DNA from: an uncultured Gammaproteobacteria bacterium
GTDB taxonomy: Bacteria; Patescibacteriota; Microgenomatia; Daviesbacterales; UBA10151
Reading direction: 5' to 3'
NCBI GenBank assembly: GCA_964522265.1
Contig: CAZFVS010000028.1
Location: 1 to 6,209, forward strand
Length of the DNA: 6,209 nt
Shown here: positions 1-6,209 of the stretch, piece by piece
How positions within the stretch are numbered: position 1 is the stretch's first letter
Layout of the letters: every line of letters begins with the position of its first letter
Notes under the pieces: generated by a model
Seen by the model: the letters and a program-made list of their open reading frames with translations, nothing else
What the model was told of the DNA's origin: nothing
The model's database searches: none
Translations under genes and position numbers: made by a program

Positions 1-519
1 TTTGTCTTTTTCCAGTTTTTCTTTCTGGGCAAGCAGATCAACAATCTCATCCGTAATGGAGATTATTACTTTCTGGTCCTCCCGGGTTGCGGCAAGACGG
101 TAAGAAAGCTCCCGGAAAATACTGGCTGAGGACTGCGAGGAAAATAAAACAGTGAGCGGGTTTGTATGATATGAGCGTATATAGTAGGAGCGTACCCTCT
201 GTTCTAGTAAAACCTGTTGTATTGCTATCTTCTCCATCCTGGCATTAAGATCCTTTTCTTTCTGGGAAATTTTATACGAAAGGCTGTAAAGAGAAGCCTG
301 TATCTGGGTAAGCTGGCGTTTTAAAGAATCGAGCTGGCCCTCTAGAGGTTTTGTGGCGCTAATGGATTGTTCCCTGGCTTTATTTAATTCAGTGATCTGT
401 TTTTGCAGGTCCTCAACTTCATCGGCATAGGCTGAAGTAAAAAGTAAAAAGGAAAAAGCGAGCAAAGCTCCTGCTGTTGCAGTAAAAAGCAGGATGACAG
501 GCAGAAAGAATTTTTTCAT
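1..519 (-). CDS. N-terminal part, truncated at the left edge, of a secreted or membrane-anchored coiled-coil protein. It resembles the PcsB/EnvC-type N-terminal region of a cell-wall hydrolase or hydrolase activator.
   Basis: This ORF is not in the supplied track because it is truncated. My hand translation of the minus strand from the ATG at 519-517 stays open to base 1 (173 codons): MKKFFLPVILLFTATAGALLAFSFLLFTSAYADEVEDLQKQITELNKAREQSISATKPLEGQLDSLKRQLTQIQASLYSLSYKISQKEKDLNARMEKIAIQQVLLEQRVRSYYIRSYHTNPLTVLFSSQSSASIFRELSYRLAATREDQKVIISITDEIVDLLAQKEKLEKDK. It has a hydrophobic signal or anchor followed by long Q/E/K/L-rich heptad-like stretches. It starts 9 nt after the stop of the upstream minus-strand gene. 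The catalytic domain, if any, lies outside the window, so the family call rests on pattern recognition only. Confidence 0.7.
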   Translation of the reverse strand, partial: MKKFFLPVILLFTATAGALLAFSFLLFTSAYADEVEDLQKQITELNKAREQSISATKPLEGQLDSLKRQLTQIQASLYSLSYKISQKEKDLNARMEKIAIQQVLLEQRVRSYYIRSYHTNPLTVLFSSQSSASIFRELSYRLAATREDQKVIISITDEIVDLLAQKEKLEKDK

Positions 520-528
520 TAACCTATT

Positions 529-1641
529 TTACCACTCAAAATCTCTTTTGGGGGAGGGGTTTAGGAAAAGCAACCAGGTGTTGAATATAAAAAGACCTAT
601 TCCAACAAACCAGGCTAAATTAAATTCCTTGGCAAATGGCAAAAGCAAAAGCACTAATACAGGCAGCCATTTTTTCTGGTTCATTAAAATAAAGATCGGC
701 AGAAGCAGGATCGCAGAATCATGCGTCAGGGAGTGAACAGAAAATAAAATCGCACACAAAGTTATGAAAACAAATATTCTGTCAAAACTTAAAAATTTCT
801 TTCTAAAAACAAAAAGGACAAAAAAAGTAAGGTATAAAAAAAAGTTTAAAACTGCTGATTTGTCTCCAAAACCAACCATCTTCAGGGCTGAATCAAGGGT
901 GTAGTAATGCCAGATCCTGCTTCCGTATATAGGGTTTTCTGTTGCTGCAATAAAATGCGGGTATTTAGCCAGGCCTGTAAAACCTGACACTAAAAAACTG
1001 ACTGCCAGGATAACCAGCGCGGATACTATCAAACCCATCAGAAAACTTTTACCTTTTGAAAGGAGAAAAAGAAACGGGGTTATTAAAAGATATTGGGGTT
1101 TAAAAAGAAGCAATCCTATTATTAATCCTGCAGAAAAATACCTTCCTTTTTTATAAAAAAGGTAGACCAGAAAAAAAACCAGTGACAAAAAAAGGGATAT
1201 CTGGCCTAAAATAAAGTTTTGTATAACCGGCCAATATAACAAAGGTATAAGAGAGAAAAATATTGGTTGTCTAATATTTATAAAAAGTTTTCTGGACAGA
1301 TACCCGATAAACAAAACCGCCCCCATGTTTAAAAAACCCAGTAATAAATAGGCATTACCAAAAGAAAATAGGGTAAACGGAATAAAAAACAGGGCTACAA
1401 AAGGAGGGTTGCGGTAAGGAAGAAGCTTGACAGAGAGGTTTTGTGAGAAGGGTTTCTGGTATTTGCCTTGGGTTTTTTCATCATATAAAAACCTTCCTTC
1501 GCCGTTTCTTACAATCAGAGCTCCTGTGTAAAAACTAATAAAATCTGTTCCTTGGACTCCATTTTTGGCAATAGCAAGCAAAACAAGTGTCAGGAATAAA
1601 ACCATTGTTAAAAAAACGCTCTTTAAAAAAAGATTGAACAT
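529..1641 (-). CDS. Polytopic integral membrane protein, probably a GT-C fold glycosyltransferase of the GT87/DUF2029 type (370 aa).
   Basis: The ORF is complete (ATG 1641-1639, TAA 531-529). The protein is hydrophobic throughout, with roughly 9-11 predicted helices. After the first helix comes the loop GTDFISFYTGALIVRNGEGRFLYD, which resembles the acidic first-loop signature of DUF2029/GT87 mannosyltransferase-like proteins. An AGGGA lies 9 nt upstream of the ATG. The family assignment comes from motif memory, not from a search. Confidence 0.6.
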   Translation of the reverse strand: MFNLFLKSVFLTMVLFLTLVLLAIAKNGVQGTDFISFYTGALIVRNGEGRFLYDEKTQGKYQKPFSQNLSVKLLPYRNPPFVALFFIPFTLFSFGNAYLLLGFLNMGAVLFIGYLSRKLFINIRQPIFFSLIPLLYWPVIQNFILGQISLFLSLVFFLVYLFYKKGRYFSAGLIIGLLLFKPQYLLITPFLFLLSKGKSFLMGLIVSALVILAVSFLVSGFTGLAKYPHFIAATENPIYGSRIWHYYTLDSALKMVGFGDKSAVLNFFLYLTFFVLFVFRKKFLSFDRIFVFITLCAILFSVHSLTHDSAILLLPIFILMNQKKWLPVLVLLLLPFAKEFNLAWFVGIGLFIFNTWLLFLNPSPKRDFEW

Positions 1642-1684
1642 TTACTTTTGTCCCTGATTTAATTAATCTCAAACTTATGGTCAA
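1634..1684. promoter_or_regulatory. Candidate back-to-back divergent promoter region, with each -35-like hexamer lying in the first codons of the opposite gene.
   Basis: On the plus strand, TTGAAC (1634-1639) is followed 18 nt later by TTTAAT (1658-1663), ahead of the ATG at 1677. On the minus strand, TTGACC (complement of 1679-1684) is followed 16 nt later by TTAAAT (complement of 1657-1662), ahead of the ATG at 1641. The palindrome TTAATTAA lies at 1659-1666. All matches are imperfect and the background is AT-rich. Confidence 0.3.
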
Positions 1685-3158
1685 GTATACAGTTTTAATC
1701 TTTGCAGTCTACACGTTATTTGTCATTAAAGGTGCAATCATGCTTGACCCTGATTTTGGGGAACATATCAGAATGGGTCAAATCATTCTCTCACAGGGTA
1801 TCCCTAAAACAGACCAATTCTCATATACTATGTCAAACTACCCGCATATTTACCATGAGTGGTTTATTGGGTCTGTTATTGCCTGGTTTTATCCATTTTT
1901 AGACATGTGGGGGTTGTCGGCAATTTTTGCCATTTTCCCAACCCTGGCTCTTGTCATTTCAATTCCCAAAAAACCTTTCAAGTTTTTTTTAGGCCCCTTG
2001 CTTTTATCAGCTTCCATCCTTTTAGTTTACTCAGGAATAAGACCACAGGTAATTTCCTGGTTTTTTCTGGCAATCCTTTTAAAAGTGATCTTTGATGAAA
2101 AATTATGGGAAAAAACCCGCTTTTTTGTACCTGTCCTTTTTCTTGTTTGGACAAACCTGCACGGCAGTTTTGGGTTGGGGATAATTATTTTATTTATTTC
2201 TTTTCTGATCCAATCCTGGGAACGGAAAAAAATTGATACGCTGGGTTTCCTGGTTTGTTTGATCAGTTTTATTGCAACTTTTATAAACCCTTACGGCAAA
2301 GGCTTATGGTATGAATTCTGGCAAACCTCATCTGACAGCTCTCTGCGGTGGTATATCCAGGAGTGGAAAATCATGCTTTTACAATTTGATTTTGCATATT
2401 TTTTCCTGGTAGCGCTTTCAACCAGCCTGATAATAAGATATAGGGAAAAATTCACCCTGCAGCAGGTGTTTTTATTTTTTATTTTTCTCTTTGCAGGTTT
2501 CTTAAGTGTCCGGAATATCCCGCTCTGGATCATAGTTTCACTGCCAATTACCATAACAGGGATCAAAAACTTTCATGAGGAAGCTTCTAAAAATAAATTT
2601 TCACTGATGAGATTTAATAGGGTTTACAAAATTTTCCTTCTTTCATCCGTACTTATATTCATAGGCCAGAGTTACCAGATCTTCAAACAGCTTAATCTTT
2701 ACTCAGAGGAACTTTCATACCCTAAAAAAGCTGTTGTTTTTTTAAAGACACAACAGTTTAACCATATTTTTAACCTGTATGACTGGGGTGGATATTTAGA
2801 CTGGAAAATGCCTGAAAAAAAGGTTTTTATAGACGGGAGGATGCCCAGCTGGAGGTGGAAAGCACCAAACAGCCTGGAAAGTGATTATATTTTCAAGGAA
2901 TACCTTAAAGTTTCAGGAGGACAGGATATCCAAAAGATTTTTGATAAATACAAAGTTGATATTGTCCTCTGGCCAACACAGGCTGAAACTGATCCAAAGA
3001 CTAAACCAAAAAACTGGTTTGAAAAAATTCAGTATGATCTGTTAAAAAAGATCCCTGAAGAAAATATCGGAGGCAAAACCTTTATTGAGCAGCTTAAAAG
3101 TATGGGCTGGAAAGAGGTTTATAAAGATGATGTGGCAGTAATTTATAAAAAACCATAA
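1677..3158 (+). CDS. Large polytopic membrane protein with a C-terminal soluble domain. It is a GT-C-like (ArnT/PMT-style) glycosyltransferase candidate (493 aa).
   Basis: The ORF runs from ATG 1677 to TAA 3156-3158. The first helix (YTVLIFAVYTLFVIKGAIML) is followed directly by an acidic loop, DPDFGEHIRMGQ, which is the DxD-type first-loop arrangement typical of GT-C enzymes. About 10 further helices follow, and then a hydrophilic tail of ~150 aa (YSEELSYPKKAV...KDDVAVIYKKP). An alternative start at ATG 1740 has an AAGGTG 5 nt upstream but would remove helix 1. The exact family is undetermined. Confidence 0.55.
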   Translation: MVKYTVLIFAVYTLFVIKGAIMLDPDFGEHIRMGQIILSQGIPKTDQFSYTMSNYPHIYHEWFIGSVIAWFYPFLDMWGLSAIFAIFPTLALVISIPKKPFKFFLGPLLLSASILLVYSGIRPQVISWFFLAILLKVIFDEKLWEKTRFFVPVLFLVWTNLHGSFGLGIIILFISFLIQSWERKKIDTLGFLVCLISFIATFINPYGKGLWYEFWQTSSDSSLRWYIQEWKIMLLQFDFAYFFLVALSTSLIIRYREKFTLQQVFLFFIFLFAGFLSVRNIPLWIIVSLPITITGIKNFHEEASKNKFSLMRFNRVYKIFLLSSVLIFIGQSYQIFKQLNLYSEELSYPKKAVVFLKTQQFNHIFNLYDWGGYLDWKMPEKKVFIDGRMPSWRWKAPNSLESDYIFKEYLKVSGGQDIQKIFDKYKVDIVLWPTQAETDPKTKPKNWFEKIQYDLLKKIPEENIGGKTFIEQLKSMGWKEVYKDDVAVIYKKP

Positions 3159-3199: not shown

Positions 3200-3469
3200 A
3201 TGAAAAGTTTGATTACCCATAATCCAGAAATTTTAGGCGGCAAACCAATTATCGCTGGCACAAGGATGTCTGTTGAGGTTCTCTTAGAATTTTTAGCTGG
3301 TGGGATGGAAATCAAAGAAGTATTAAAAGAATTTCCATTTCTAACCAGAGAACAGATAGAAGCAGCTATCAGCTTTGCTGCAAAAAAGGTTGGAGCAAAA
3401 AAAAGTTATTCTTCTGATGAAAATTCTGCTCCCCAAGCAATTCCTCATGAGATTTCTCGCAGACGTTAA
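3200..3469 (+). CDS. DUF433 (COG2442-type) small DNA-binding protein, the putative antitoxin (89 aa).
   Basis: The segment HNPEILGGKPIIAGTRMSVEVLLEFLAGGMEIKEVLKEFPFLTREQIEAAISFAAK matches the DUF433 signature (P-x-I-x-x-GKP-x-I-x-GTR, then a helix-turn-helix-like G-x-x-x-x-E-[IV]-L-x-x-[YF]P-x-L-T-x-E-x-I-x-A-A). The gene lies immediately upstream of a DUF5615 gene, which is the canonical pairing. It has an unusual ~25-aa hydrophilic tail that overlaps the next gene. Confidence 0.85.
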   Translation: MKSLITHNPEILGGKPIIAGTRMSVEVLLEFLAGGMEIKEVLKEFPFLTREQIEAAISFAAKKVGAKKSYSSDENSAPQAIPHEISRRR

Positions 3470-3797
3470 TATCACCCAAACTTTAATTAAATTCCTGCGT
3501 TCAAAAAACCACAATGTATTAGATATTAAGGTATTTGATCAAAAAATTTCTGATGTAGAAATAATAAAACTTGCCTTAAAAGAAGGGAGAATAATATTAA
3601 CTCACGATAAAGACTTTGAAGTGTTAAGTAAGTACCCAAAATATCATGTTGGTATTATTAAAATTAGGTTGAAAATACAAAATTCGCCACATTTTTGTGA
3701 AAGGATAAACTTTTTGTTAAAGCAAAAAAGTGAAAAGGTGCTTCACGGTTCGTTAACAATACTCGAAGAAAACTCTAATGATTCTTATCCTTATTAA
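3447..3797 (+). CDS. DUF5615 (Mut7-C/PIN-like, COG4634-type) protein, the putative toxin nuclease (116 aa).
   Basis: From ATG 3447 the product reads MRFLADVNITQTLIKFLRSKNHNVLDIKVFDQKISDVEIIKLALKEGRIILTHDKDFEVL.... This fits the DUF5615 pattern (M-x-F-L-x-D-x-N near the N-terminus, S/D-D-x-E-I, then T-x-D-x-D-F), and the acidic residues are retained. The track ORF begins at 3375. ATG 3417 and ATG 3447 are both in frame, and I chose 3447 because family members begin at this motif. This start gives a 23-nt out-of-frame overlap with the DUF433 gene. Confidence 0.8.
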   Translation: MRFLADVNITQTLIKFLRSKNHNVLDIKVFDQKISDVEIIKLALKEGRIILTHDKDFEVLSKYPKYHVGIIKIRLKIQNSPHFCERINFLLKQKSEKVLHGSLTILEENSNDSYPY

Positions 3798-3905: not shown

Positions 3906-5120
3906 ATGCCCAAAATACTCTCCATATTACTTATATTCATATTAACTTTTTCCTATTTAAAACCTGCAGCAGCTGATACTAACCAGTGTTCTACTACCAC
4001 AGTATATGAGGGACAAGCAATACCAGCATTAGTTCAAAACATACCTCCTATGAGTAAAGAGACACCAGACAACAAAAGATGGGTAGTATTTAAGATTATT
4101 GCAAGCAAAGACCCTAAAAATAGAGATATCAATACAAAATATAAGGTTATTTTCGACTATGGTGCACTTGGTACAGGAGAAACCTCTAGAGATAATTTAT
4201 CTGTAGATAACGAAGGAGCTCTTATAGACGATAAGGGAAACTATCCTGGAATCAAATATGATCCTGCAGCAGGAACTTCATTGTTTCAGCCTGGTAAACA
4301 TAATATAGATGTAGAAAGAAAAGGGGTTAGTGGAACATATTGCAAAGGTACATACGAAGTACTTAAAGATGCTTCAGGTGGTATTAAAGATTGCAAATTA
4401 GATTTTCAACCACCAAATCCAGATGAGAATAAAGAAATTACAGTAAGAGGAACAGTAGATCCACCCGGATCATATCAATTAAGGGTAGAATCCAAAAAAT
4501 CATTTAATCTTGAAGTTAATTCAGAAGGGAAAATACAACCTATTAATATAGGAAAATTTAACCCAAGGCAAAATCCATATGCAATAGCTTTACAAACTCA
4601 GCAACTAGATATGGCTTCTAGTGTTATTTCAGGTTTTCCTGTATTCAGTTTCCAGGATACTAATTGTATATATCAAGTACAAATCGCTATTAGTGGAGGC
4701 TCTGGAGTTGTCACCCAACCAATTCAACCAGGCCCGCCTAAACCTGGTTCAGGAGGTGGTAGAACGGGTGTGGATTGCTCTAAAGAACCATCAGGATGCT
4801 CAACTTCTGCAGGGGAATTTTGTGACCCTCCTGCTAATACTCAGATAAAAACTGCCATTGGGTGTATCCCTACTGAACCATCAGCGCTGGTTGGAGGGCT
4901 TTTGAGGTTTGCTGCAGGAGGAGCAGGAGGGATTGCACTTTTACTGATGATTTTTGGGGCTTTCAGAATGGTTACCTCTGCTGGTAACCCGGAAAGCTTA
5001 AAAGCCGGCCAGGAACAATTCACAGCAGCTGTTATCGGGCTTTTGTTTATTATTTTTGCAGTATTATTGCTACAGATTATCGGGGTTGATATACTGGGAT
5101 TGCCTGGGTTCACCAAATAA
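3906..5120 (+). CDS. Secreted multi-domain protein: signal peptide, ~280-aa Cys-containing extracellular region, Pro/Gly linker, and a C-terminal VirB2/TrbC-like pilin hairpin (404 aa).
   Basis: I set the start at ATG 3906, which gives MPKILSILLIFILTFSYLKPAAA|DT, a classic Sec signal with an AxA site and GGGG 4 nt upstream. The track's TTG 3825 start adds a non-signal-like extension. The mature region has 8 Cys and is rich in beta-strand-type residues. The linker QPIQPGPPKPGSGGGRTG spans about 4716-4769. The C-terminus, from about 4845, reads IKTAIGCIPTEPSALVGGLLRFAAGGAGGIALLLMIFGAFRMVTSAGNPESLKAGQEQFTAAVIGLLFIIFAVLLLQIIG. This is helix-loop-helix with the same loop motif as the three downstream genes. 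Confidence 0.8.
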   Translation: MPKILSILLIFILTFSYLKPAAADTNQCSTTTVYEGQAIPALVQNIPPMSKETPDNKRWVVFKIIASKDPKNRDINTKYKVIFDYGALGTGETSRDNLSVDNEGALIDDKGNYPGIKYDPAAGTSLFQPGKHNIDVERKGVSGTYCKGTYEVLKDASGGIKDCKLDFQPPNPDENKEITVRGTVDPPGSYQLRVESKKSFNLEVNSEGKIQPINIGKFNPRQNPYAIALQTQQLDMASSVISGFPVFSFQDTNCIYQVQIAISGGSGVVTQPIQPGPPKPGSGGGRTGVDCSKEPSGCSTSAGEFCDPPANTQIKTAIGCIPTEPSALVGGLLRFAAGGAGGIALLLMIFGAFRMVTSAGNPESLKAGQEQFTAAVIGLLFIIFAVLLLQIIGVDILGLPGFTK

Positions 5121-5126
5121 TCCAAT

Positions 5127-5483
5127 ATGAACAAGCTCGCTTTAAATATAGATGGCAAAAATATCCCCAATCTGCCTGAATTTGGCACGAATAGTGAGCT
5201 CAAAGAACTTACTTTAGGGGGAATAGCCAGCGTTGCATTAAACCTGATTTTTTATATTGCCGGGCTGCTGCTTGCTATCTGGCTGGTCTGGGGCGTGATG
5301 CAGTATATCTTTGCCGGAGGCAATAAAGAAGCATTGGCGAAAGCCCGCTCCAGGATCACTTATGCACTGGTTGGTTTTATTATAGTTGTCATGTCTTTTA
5401 CAATTAGCCAATATATTAAAGCCGCACTTACATTTAATCCAACTCGATTACTACCGCCAATCACAAATATATCCACGCCATGA
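5127..5483 (+). CDS. Small two-TM hairpin protein, VirB2/TrbC-like (CPR T4SS-pilin type) paralogue 1 (118 aa).
   Basis: The gene starts 6 nt after the preceding stop. TM1 is ASVALNLIFYIAGLLLAIWLVWGVMQYIF, the loop is AGGNKEALAKARSRIT (5313-5360), and TM2 is YALVGFIIVVMSFTISQYI. The stop TGA overlaps the next ATG (ATGA at 5480-5483). Confidence 0.8.
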   Translation: MNKLALNIDGKNIPNLPEFGTNSELKELTLGGIASVALNLIFYIAGLLLAIWLVWGVMQYIFAGGNKEALAKARSRITYALVGFIIVVMSFTISQYIKAALTFNPTRLLPPITNISTP

Positions 5484-5791
5484 TAAGCAAAGCCTATGCT
5501 GTTGAATTAAACAAAGAGTATGGTTTCGGATGGGTAAGCAGTGCCGGTTATTTTCTTGGACTATATTTAGTCCCTATTGTTTTTGAAATTGCCGGGATAG
5601 CCGTACTTTTTTATACAGTTTTTGCGGCGATAAAATATATGACATCAGGAGGCGATAAAGAAGCAGTGGCATCAGCCCGCGCTATGATTACCCATTCAAT
5701 AATAGGCTTTCTTTTACTGATATTTGTCTTTCTGTTTCTGCAATATATATTCCCGGCAATCGGGCTGGAAGGGTTTGCTATAATCAGATAA
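5480..5791 (+). CDS. Small two-TM hairpin protein, VirB2/TrbC-like pilin-type paralogue 2 (103 aa).
   Basis: There is a 4-nt ATGA overlap with paralogue 1. TM1 is YFLGLYLVPIVFEIAGIAVLFYTVFAAIKYM, the loop is SGGDKEAVASARAMIT (5645-5692), and TM2 is HSIIGFLLLIFVFLFLQYIF. Confidence 0.8.
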   Translation: MISKAYAVELNKEYGFGWVSSAGYFLGLYLVPIVFEIAGIAVLFYTVFAAIKYMTSGGDKEAVASARAMITHSIIGFLLLIFVFLFLQYIFPAIGLEGFAIIR

Positions 5792-5793
5792 AT

Positions 5794-6114
5794 ATGAAAC
5801 TTTTAGCCCTTTCGTTTGACGAGGTTATAGGAAAAATCACTCCTCCTGTCCCCATCCGTAATATCGGAGAGGGCGGGGCAGGCATAAACAAGTTCCTTTC
5901 TAATATTTTAAACATCATCTATGTTTTCGGGTCAATTATTTTCCTTTTTATGATAGTGGTCAGTGCTGTCCAATGGATTATCTCAGGCGGTGATAAAGAA
6001 GCGGTCCAAAAAGCCCGTTCAAGAATCACCAGTGCCATCATCGGGCTTATTCTTTTGGCCCTAGCCAGGTTTATAGCAACACTGGTTGGTTCAATCACGG
6101 GTTTTAATATTTGA
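5794..6114 (+). CDS. Small two-TM hairpin protein, VirB2/TrbC-like pilin-type paralogue 3 (106 aa).
   Basis: The gene starts 2 nt after the preceding stop. TM1 is FLSNILNIIYVFGSIIFLFMIVVSAVQWII, the loop is SGGDKEAVQKARSRIT (5983-6030), and TM2 is SAIIGLILLALARFIATLVG. Confidence 0.8.
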   Translation: MKLLALSFDEVIGKITPPVPIRNIGEGGAGINKFLSNILNIIYVFGSIIFLFMIVVSAVQWIISGGDKEAVQKARSRITSAIIGLILLALARFIATLVGSITGFNI

Positions 6115-6117
6115 TAC

Positions 6118-6147
6118 TTGACAAGCTTTTTGTAATCTGCATATGAT
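6118..6147 (+). promoter_or_regulatory. Candidate sigma70-type promoter immediately downstream of the pilin-like array.
   Basis: TTGACA (6118-6123, a perfect -35) is followed by an 18-nt spacer and then TATGAT (6142-6147, 5/6 match to the -10 consensus). The predicted start point, around 6153-6155, coincides with the ATG ATG at 6152-6157. Confidence 0.45.
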
Positions 6148-6151
6148 AATA

Positions 6152-6209
6152 ATGATGCGGTCCAAAATTATTAGTGCATTAACTATCGGAATTGCTGTTT
6201 TACTGAATC
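6152..6209 (+). CDS. 5' end of an ORF with a hydrophobic N-terminus (signal peptide or TM helix). It is truncated at the right edge and its function is unknown.
   Basis: My hand translation gives atg atg cgg tcc aaa att att agt gca tta act atc gga att gct gtt tta ctg aat = MMRSKIISALTIGIAVLLN, open to the window edge. In-frame ATGs also occur at 6143 and 6155. Only 19 codons are visible, so the coding call is tentative. Confidence 0.35.
   Translation, partial: MMRSKIISALTIGIAVLLN

Follow-up and report, generated by a model that had tools for sequence, protein, structure and literature searches.

Arrays of two to eleven pilin genes, recognised with the Pfam family PF18895 (T4SS_pilin), have been described in the Patescibacteria, where 441 such arrays were found in 383 assemblies, especially in the Microgenomatia and Saccharimonadia, with a mean within-array identity of 25%, and where a pilin gene lies near virB4 in 1,135/1,948 assemblies (Quinonero-Coronel et al. 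2025, PMC12102498). In Southlakia epibionticum ML1 the pilin series forms part of the type IV secretion system (T4SS) cluster SEML1_0006-0019 and is essential by transposon sequencing (Wang et al. 2023, PMC10633639); the T4SS and its pilins are needed for the epibiotic growth of this one genetically tractable patescibacterium. A 2025 review counts six VirB2-like pilins in this species and speculates on a pilus in a monoderm (PMC12857230), and the role of the patescibacterial T4SS has been described as completely unknown (PMC11665869). The present analysis concerns an array of the same kind in the 6,209-nucleotide (nt) stretch of contig CAZFVS010000028.1 examined here as a whole and termed the window. 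The published definition of an array (at least two PF18895- or PF04956-positive genes, in tandem or one non-pilin gene apart, in a Patescibacteria genome; PMC12102498) covers the four complete tandem PF18895-positive genes of the window, P0 to P3, and the start of a fifth, and the window thus adds no new kind of system to those already published. It is proposed, with a probability of roughly 0.6, that the window covers the leading portion of a T4SS locus that is chromosomal and conserved, in a Daviesbacteria-like bacterium (Microgenomates, Patescibacteria), and that the hairpin proteins encoded there build a heteromeric pilus or stalk. A first-pass annotation of the DNA had assigned the genes to the pilin-type arrays of the candidate phyla radiation, with which the nearest loci, in metagenome-assembled genomes of Candidatus Daviesbacteria (Microgenomates group, Patescibacteria), agree; its view that such arrays are experimentally uncharacterised has been overtaken by the essentiality of the S. 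epibionticum series.

The four genes are co-directional on the forward strand and occupy positions 3906-6114. P0 (3906-5120; 404 amino acids (aa) from the ATG at 3906, identical to an NCBI protein of 404 aa) is followed after 6 nt by P1 (5127-5483; 118 aa), the stop of which overlaps the start of P2 (5480-5791; 103 aa) in a 4-nt ATGA, while P3 (5794-6114; 106 aa) begins after a gap of 2 nt. P1, P2 and P3 are small hairpin pilin-like proteins and represent paralogue classes 1, 2 and 3, respectively. The coordinates and spacing given in the first-pass annotation are exact, and the four loop peptides and three codon strings it quoted could all be located in the sequence. Each of the four proteins has at its C-terminal end two hydrophobic segments around a short polar loop (Kyte-Doolittle windows), with the common hairpin motif SGGDKEA..KAR..IT..IIG. 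The helix-loop-helix architecture proposed for all four is borne out by the AlphaFold2 models of P0 (helices at residues 325-357 and 362-392; mean pLDDT 83.2) and P3 (helices at residues 29-63 and 68-102; pLDDT 78.4). No recognisable cleavable signal peptide is present in P1-P3, whereas P0 and the orthologue of the fifth gene in the related locus L005 have one. The class III motif (G/[FM]xxxE) is absent from the first 45 residues of P0-P3, and their C-terminal two-helix hairpin differs from the single hydrophobic helix that follows this motif in type IV pilins; the four proteins are thus not of the prepilin-peptidase type. The similarity between the large and small members extends upstream of the first helix into a short [IV]-G-x-I-x-P motif, examples of which are AIGCIPTEP in P0 (residues 313-322, modelled by AlphaFold2 as a small beta-hairpin), VIGKITPP in P3 (residues 11-18) and NIGSIAPS in the fifth pilin of L005.

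All four proteins match the 71-position PF18895 model (E 5.2e-5 for P0, 6.8e-9 for P1, 1e-5 for P2 and 2.8e-11 for P3), with P1 (36.1 bits) and P3 (43.8 bits) above the gathering cut-off of 26.6 bits and the matches of P0 and P2 spanning model positions 15-71. The same model is matched by 33/33 small relatives (E <= 0.01), which were drawn from the window, the database matches and the related loci, and by 99/100 large relatives (E <= 0.001). Furthermore, 32/33 small relatives match NF045849, the Mbov_0395 family of pilin-like conjugal transfer proteins (best E 4.9e-13; P1, E 6.5e-6). With scores of 11.6-25.7 bits the window proteins miss the equivalog cut-off of this family (40 bits), and on these profile scores they are homologous to it but lie outside the equivalog. 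The clear relatives, as judged from sequence, are thus 'pilin-like' proteins of Mollicutes integrative and conjugative elements (ICEs). The first-pass annotation had named the proteins VirB2/TrbC-like T4SS pilins, of which the T4SS_pilin part holds for all four, but the VirB2/TrbC part found no backing: no window protein matches PF04956 (VirB2/TrbC) at E <= 1, and only 2/33 small relatives do so weakly (best E 0.0011). What backs the label 'T4SS pilin' is thus how the family was named, where the genes lie and the structure-based annotation in the literature, and not demonstrated homology to a pilus subunit of solved structure.

Each of the related loci L005, L006, L016, L017 and L018 has six hairpin genes, while L001 has five open reading frames (ORFs), one of which represents fused classes 1 and 2. 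Window genes 0-3 correspond, as reciprocal best hits and with the order kept, to genes 0-3 of L005, L006 and L007 and to their counterparts in L001. Thus P1 pairs with gene 1 and P2 with gene 2 of L005, L006 and L007, P2 also with the C-terminal half of the L001 fusion, and P3 with gene 3 of L005 (75% identity), L006, L007 and L001; the L003 array is collinear with the window in part only. These positional orthologues are 41-88% identical, which is above the identity among the window paralogues (25-55%, in local stretches only; BLASTP E-values within the array 2e-4 to 3e-12). The first-pass annotation had described a four-gene array, which falls short of the conserved unit of six. An ORF starting at ATG 6143, of which the first 22 residues (MIIMMRSKIISALTIGIAVLLN...) lie within the window, aligns with MIILMRSKVLSVLAVGAAVLLN... 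of the gene at 11471-11899 in L005 (PF18895, E 3.5e-9) and is the orthologue of the fifth pilin there. This class 4 gene (6143..6209, forward strand) begins with a signal-peptide-like segment and runs beyond the window end. Judged by these alignments, the window array comprises five of six ancient, distinct and non-interchangeable classes that occur in a fixed order.

The 28-nt space between P3 and the fifth gene is the only sizeable gap in the array, and contains a promoter-like site (6118-6147, forward strand; TTGACA, 18 nt, TATGAT; 11/12 consensus matches), the -10 element of which overlaps the ATG at 6143. Further in-frame ATGs of the fifth gene occur at 6152 and 6155, and a separate transcript of this gene, perhaps leaderless, is conceivable. 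Promoter-like sites are as numerous in the region as expected from shuffling, and the site at 6118-6147 is to be taken as a consensus match only. No tRNA and no Rfam family was detected in the window.

Repeat scans found no direct DNA repeat of 35 nt or longer in the window, and the paralogues have none above 20 nt in common. The similarity of the paralogues is therefore old and kept at the protein level, which, together with the closer relation of orthologues than of paralogues, sustains the earlier claim of old copies held by selection on the protein. The sequence data support P0-P3 being ancient paralogues under purifying selection, and recent duplication or gene conversion within the array could be ruled out, as such repeats are lacking. 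These observations bear on a different explanation of the array, in which the paralogues are interchangeable alternative major subunits that provide a repertoire for antigenic or host-range variation. Such a role has been proposed for the arrays of VirB2 paralogues in Bartonella and Anaplasma, and PMC12102498 suggests it for Patescibacteria. It would suit the high divergence within arrays (25% average identity in PMC12102498, and the range given above for the window), the range of array sizes across the phylum (2-11; PMC12102498) and the swapping of the ectodomain of the first member between close relatives. However, one-to-one positional orthologues that are more alike than the paralogues are found in four diverged genomes, the count of six recurs, and neither recent duplications nor gene-conversion tracts are seen. 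Furthermore, the differences between the classes are systematic, with an ectodomain on class 0 only, and a signal peptide on class 0 only within the window and on the class 4 orthologue of L005. One-to-one classes in a fixed order argue for non-redundant roles in a single assembly, and an interchangeable repertoire is accordingly considered improbable.

Several further features of the arrays in the related loci were observed. A single 232-aa ORF of L001 (2661-3359) carries the hairpins of classes 1 and 2 in tandem, where the window has two genes with the ATGA overlap (5127-5791); the fusion is either natural or due to a frameshift in the assembly. The L006 array is interrupted in its middle by a gene (7691-8839) for a secreted protein of 382 aa that is built mostly from tandem repeats of 15 aa (45 nt). 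Genes of the 23S_rRNA_IVP family, with a faint match to bAvd, lie in or beside the arrays of L006 (5821-6294), L001 (4702-5064) and L002 (4674-5036). These genes suggested a diversity-generating retroelement acting on the ectodomain, an idea that was dropped because no template/variable repeat pair emerged when L001, L006 and the window were scanned for repeats, and because neither the scanned proteins nor the precomputed Pfam annotation of the loci include a reverse-transcriptase family. Purine-rich intergenic tracts with a 9-nt period and Shine-Dalgarno-like GGAGG/AAGG units lie between array genes and other genes of L001 (1100-1160, 2600-2651, 3767-3854, 4633-4710, 11213-11282 and 11816-11912), with no counterpart in the window.

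The first member of the array differs from the others in carrying a large surface domain. P0 consists of a signal peptide (residues 1-23, positions 3906-3974; cleavage after AAA at residue 23, by inspection), two immunoglobulin (Ig)-like beta-sandwich domains (approximately residues 27-270, positions 3984-4715; AlphaFold2), a Pro/Gly linker with a Cys-rich knob (residues 271-324, positions 4716-4877) and the helix-loop-helix hairpin (residues 325-392, positions 4878-5081), all read from the forward strand. The linker is disordered in the model, and the knob is a small Cys-rich beta-hairpin with Cys 291, 298, 306 and 320. Foldseek comparison against the PDB gave only generic Ig-like matches with low TM-scores, the C region of the adhesin Bap first and D0-D1 of the adhesin intimin among them. 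The C-terminal ~100 residues alone align in 102/119 P0 homologues (median identity 59%, up to 88%), and the hairpin module stands at the extreme C-terminus of every homologue; these proteins are 225 to 677 aa in size. Their N-terminal parts, by contrast, fall into at least 24 BLAST clusters and are nearly devoid of Pfam domains (one fn3 among 100 proteins), and an exhaustive search with the P0 ectodomain of 1.84 billion representative proteins returned only 19 related clusters, mostly of ~370-410 aa. For example, the hairpin module of P0 is 88% identical to that of the first gene of L005, whereas the ectodomains of the two proteins cannot be aligned. Across genomes, no part of the array is better conserved than the class 0 hairpin module. 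A conserved hairpin with swapped ectodomains indicates, at the sequence level, that the first subunit behaves as an anchor or 'socket' with an exchangeable surface domain, an arrangement that would suit a host-contact element.

The machinery that such proteins would serve is found further downstream in the relatives. In L016-L018 the reverse strand upstream of the array encodes SmpB, a protein of ~540-640 aa, a DUF5657 protein, a protein of ~185 aa and then a SpoIID-domain protein, and the forward strand encodes the six pilins and a polytopic membrane protein, after which follow a large variable gene on the opposite strand, PrgI (VirB3-like) and a VirB4-type ATPase. This ATPase is TraC-like in all three loci, with AAA_10 and P-loop_TraG in L018, and lies ~8-11 kb after the array start; the same order is seen in L003/L004. 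The first-pass annotation stressed that no secretion machinery was in view, and it is correct that the window holds no ATPase, but the absence is most probably an edge effect, since the window ends before the point at which PrgI and VirB4 follow in these related loci.

Homologues of the polytopic protein, of 517-605 aa, occur in all eight related loci (L001 5160-6944; L003 14299-15915; L005 13817-15628; L006 10254-11918; L007 19057-20826; L016 13171-14988; L017 14437-16242; L018 14142-15695), where the gene follows the array directly or behind one or two small genes. Topology computed on the L001, L003, L005, L006 and L007 copies gives a signal peptide, an ectodomain of ~130-170 aa, at least six transmembrane (TM)-like hydrophobic segments and a hydrophilic tail. 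The protein has more than 200 homologues, with a single Pfam mark (PF21724) among the 120 listed; six scanned copies lack a Pfam match, as do those of the remaining loci in the precomputed annotation, no PDB sequence match was found, and hhalign against PrgH of pCF10 gave nothing. One homologue (P0138), which is 77% identical to the L005 copy, is encoded on an NCBI contig of 11,918 bp, and P0 and P3 are likewise recorded on a contig of 11,918 bp. It is thus very probable that the contig of the window runs on across pilins 4 and 5 to the polytopic gene. By position and topology, the polytopic protein is a candidate divergent VirB6, a component reported to be scarce in the Microgenomatia (PMC12102498).

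The conserved partner on the other side of the array is the SpoIID-domain protein, the 5' part of which (173 codons, with a signal peptide and coiled coil) occupies positions 1..519 of the reverse strand and continues beyond the window start. The fragment shares 89.5%, 61%, 52% and 27% identity (BLASTP) with its counterparts in L005, L007, L001 and L003, respectively, and copies in the relatives match the SpoIID family of Pfam. In seven of the related loci, all but L006, the gene stands divergently beside the pilins as a conserved partner. According to PMC12102498, most patescibacterial genomes with VirB2 homologues have no VirB1, and a SpoIID-type lytic transglycosylase beside the array could take the VirB1 role.

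On this basis, a mechanism can be proposed in which the hairpin proteins would first be inserted in the cytoplasmic membrane, their two ends facing outwards and the short loop facing inwards, this orientation being the weak part of the scheme. A VirB4-driven machine would then extract them from the membrane, as for VirB2-type pilins, and they would be assembled into one heteromeric surface structure, a short pilus or stalk, with a separate place for each of the six classes. P0 would contribute the most conserved hairpin, and its two Ig-like domains, which are lineage-specific and exchangeable, would be displayed on the flexible Pro/Gly linker and act as adhesin or tip where the epibiont contacts its host. 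The divergently encoded SpoIID-domain protein may make room for the structure in the cell wall, as VirB1 does elsewhere. The first-pass annotation had likewise envisaged a surface filament, in which the one large and three small members might be major, minor and tip subunits. A bolder version, which is put forward tentatively and may well not hold, is that the six classes form, with fixed positions, a single heteromeric, T4SS-dependent surface organelle of a monoderm bacterium, in which the Cys-rich knob and hairpin of P0 serve as a socket for swappable Ig-like host-recognition domains and the polytopic and SpoIID-domain proteins are the VirB6 and VirB1 equivalents of the Microgenomatia. If this were true, host range could be retargeted by ectodomain swaps at the Pro/Gly linker. 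The ordered one-to-one classes argue for a heteromeric structure over an antigenic-variation repertoire, and the lead subunit with its exchangeable Ig-like domains represents a concrete candidate for host recognition, as do the conserved polytopic and SpoIID-domain proteins for VirB6 and VirB1, respectively. Should a pilus be formed, it would be the first of such a T4SS in a monoderm (PMC12857230).

A number of observations weigh against the pilus or stalk proposal. P2 (25.9 bits) and P0 (23.7 bits) fall just below the PF18895 cut-off of 26.6 bits, although the L005 orthologue of P2 passes it (29.6 bits) and orthologues of P0 score 26.5 and 26.4. Comparison by hhalign of the profile of the 33 small relatives with eight genuine MPF_T VirB2/TrbC proteins from annotated plasmids gave a probability of 2.4% (E 0.02), with helix 1 only aligned. 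A PDB profile search with the same 33 relatives retrieved no pilin, and Foldseek comparison of the P3 model with the PDB returned nothing with E < 3.8. A bare hairpin is a weak query, however, and the VirB2/TrbC negatives are therefore not contrary evidence. The loops of P0 and P2 have net charges of -1 and 0 and are thus not basic, while those of P1 and P3 carry +2 to +3. Linkage to the ATPase, which the window itself does not include, is deduced from the relatives and from the matching 11,918-bp records. Neither a pilus nor a filament has so far been observed with any protein of this family, and Gram-positive-type (MPF_FATA) T4SSs are generally pilus-less (PMC10633639; PMC12102498). Finally, the SpoIID protein has a PcsB-like coiled coil and a housekeeping neighbourhood with smpB adjoining, and may be a cell-division hydrolase that lies near the array by synteny alone.

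The strongest alternative is a T4SS locus that makes no filament. The six hairpin proteins would remain in the membrane and form a hetero-oligomeric part of the channel or stalk in a monoderm-type T4SS, and P0 would be a surface adhesin held by its C-terminal hairpin. The clearest relatives are small hairpin proteins of Mollicutes ICEs (NF045849, 32/33), and one relative also matches the pLS20_p028 conjugation membrane protein. The gene order equals that of pCF10, in which the small membrane proteins PrgF and PrgG are followed by PrgH (TrbL/VirB6 match), PrgI and PrgJ (VirB4). There is no demonstrable similarity to VirB2 pilus subunits, and the location of the module at the extreme C-terminus of very diverse ectodomains is the behaviour of an anchor. 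To our knowledge, no conjugative pilus is known for monoderm conjugation systems, which likewise speaks for hairpins that remain in the membrane. However, the predicted helices of 31-35 residues exceed what is needed to span a bilayer, as in pilins, and six conserved paralogues are many for an anchor. The S. epibionticum proteins were called pilins in a published structure-based annotation (PMC10633639). The comparison with pCF10 also offers no sequence support, as PrgF, PrgG and PrgH show no significant similarity and the hhalign alignment with PrgF (P 0.043) is confined to the loop. Hairpins that never leave the membrane are thus considered possible but rather unlikely, and assembly into a heteromeric pilus or stalk is preferred.

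The presence of small proteins with two TM segments next to a conserved gene of the SpoIID-domain peptidoglycan hydrolase type could also recall unrelated membrane proteins, either holins of a lysis cassette paired with the hydrolase, or bacteriocin and immunity proteins. No PHROGs match (E <= 0.01) was obtained, tblastn found no match in 50,697 phage records or in the 72,556 plasmids of PLSDB, and the best result of a BFVD fold search had E 0.89. The locus is chromosomal and adjoins smpB, no phage genes occur within 10 kb in eight loci, and six paralogues, one of them with a secreted ectodomain of 300 aa, are unlike a lysis cassette. A lysis-cassette or bacteriocin origin is thus very improbable; a phage reading of the hairpin proteins was rejected on the PHROGs, phage tblastn and BFVD negatives. 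No holin or phage link emerged, whereas homologues consistently located in lysis cassettes would, according to the first-pass annotation, have pointed to holins. A plasmid or mobile-element reading was likewise rejected, given the PLSDB negative and the adjoining smpB in the relatives.

The remaining genes of the window lie between the SpoIID-domain gene and the array, a distance of ~3.4 kb, whereas in the relatives the former stands directly and divergently upstream of the latter. A GT87-like glycosyltransferase membrane protein (529..1641, reverse strand; 370 aa; PF09594, E 1.2e-17) is followed on the forward strand by a polytopic membrane protein of 493 aa (1677..3158) with no Pfam or NCBIfam match, an antitoxin-like DUF433 protein (3200..3469; 89 aa; PF04255, E 7.6e-23) and a DUF5615/PIN-like protein (3447..3797; PF18480, E 1.3e-18; PIN_10, 1.2e-5; Mut7-C, 1.6e-5). 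The last gene likely starts at ATG 3447, although the ORF is open from TTG 3375, because the domain begins at residue 25 of the longer ORF. Glycosyltransferases had been named as the upstream neighbours of the array in the first-pass annotation; this is correct for the GT87 gene, but the 493-aa protein matches no family and the immediate neighbours are the DUF433 and DUF5615 genes, which form a toxin-antitoxin-like pair. The gap between the SpoIID-domain gene and the array is only ~70-160 bp in L016-L018, holds a Fic gene in L007 and in L005 a pair of small ORFs that appears RelE-like by eye from the sequence alone, and lacks the GT87-like gene in all five of these loci. It thus looks like an insertion hotspot for cargo of the toxin-antitoxin type, and the GT87-like gene and the 493-aa protein are most likely lineage-specific cargo outside the conserved locus.

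Comparison with known systems places the array at differing distances from each. The small non-interchangeable paralogues of the tip or minor-subunit complexes of type IV pili and type II secretion pseudopili (GspK and PilY1-type), which are co-encoded and include one with a bulky domain that could cap or prime the filament, resemble the array by analogy only; their fold and machinery are unrelated, and P0-P3 carry no class III signal motif. VirB2/TrbC proteins (PF04956; the Agrobacterium T-pilus, MPF_T) share the small size, the two long hydrophobic helices and the short loop. In both cases the two termini may plausibly lie outside the membrane, and, as judged here from the relatives of the window, the locus includes VirB3- and VirB4-type genes. 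They differ in having no significant sequence or profile similarity to the window proteins and a long cleaved leader, which P1-P3 lack, in the monoderm host here, and in the presence of one major pilin and VirB5 where six paralogues are found here. In MPF_T plasmids an SLT-type VirB1 adjoins virB2, compared with the SpoIID-type lytic transglycosylase of the present locus.

The Mbov_0395/MMCAP2_0565 family (NF045849) is nearer, with matches over nearly the whole 80-position model in 32/33 array members, and it has, like the array, a monoderm-type T4SS context; in pCF10 the order of small membrane proteins, VirB6-like protein, PrgI and VirB4 is also the same. The Mollicutes ICEs and pCF10 are mobile elements, however, whereas the present locus is chromosomal and next to smpB, and PrgF is not significantly similar. 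The closest counterparts are the pilin arrays of other Patescibacteria. Among the differences, the T4SS core of the relatives of the window follows 8-11 kb from the array start, behind the polytopic protein and the large opposite-strand gene, and S. epibionticum belongs to the Saccharibacteria and not to a Daviesbacteria-like lineage. An ectodomain-bearing first member, collinear one-to-one classes and a SpoIID partner, all of which are seen here, find no mention in PMC12102498. The PF18895 family, the phylum and the tandem arrangement of divergent hairpins are common to both, as is, judging from the relatives of the window, a monoderm-type T4SS with PrgI and VirB4 and no obvious relaxase, and the six pilins reported for S. 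epibionticum are equalled by the six of the relatives of the window.

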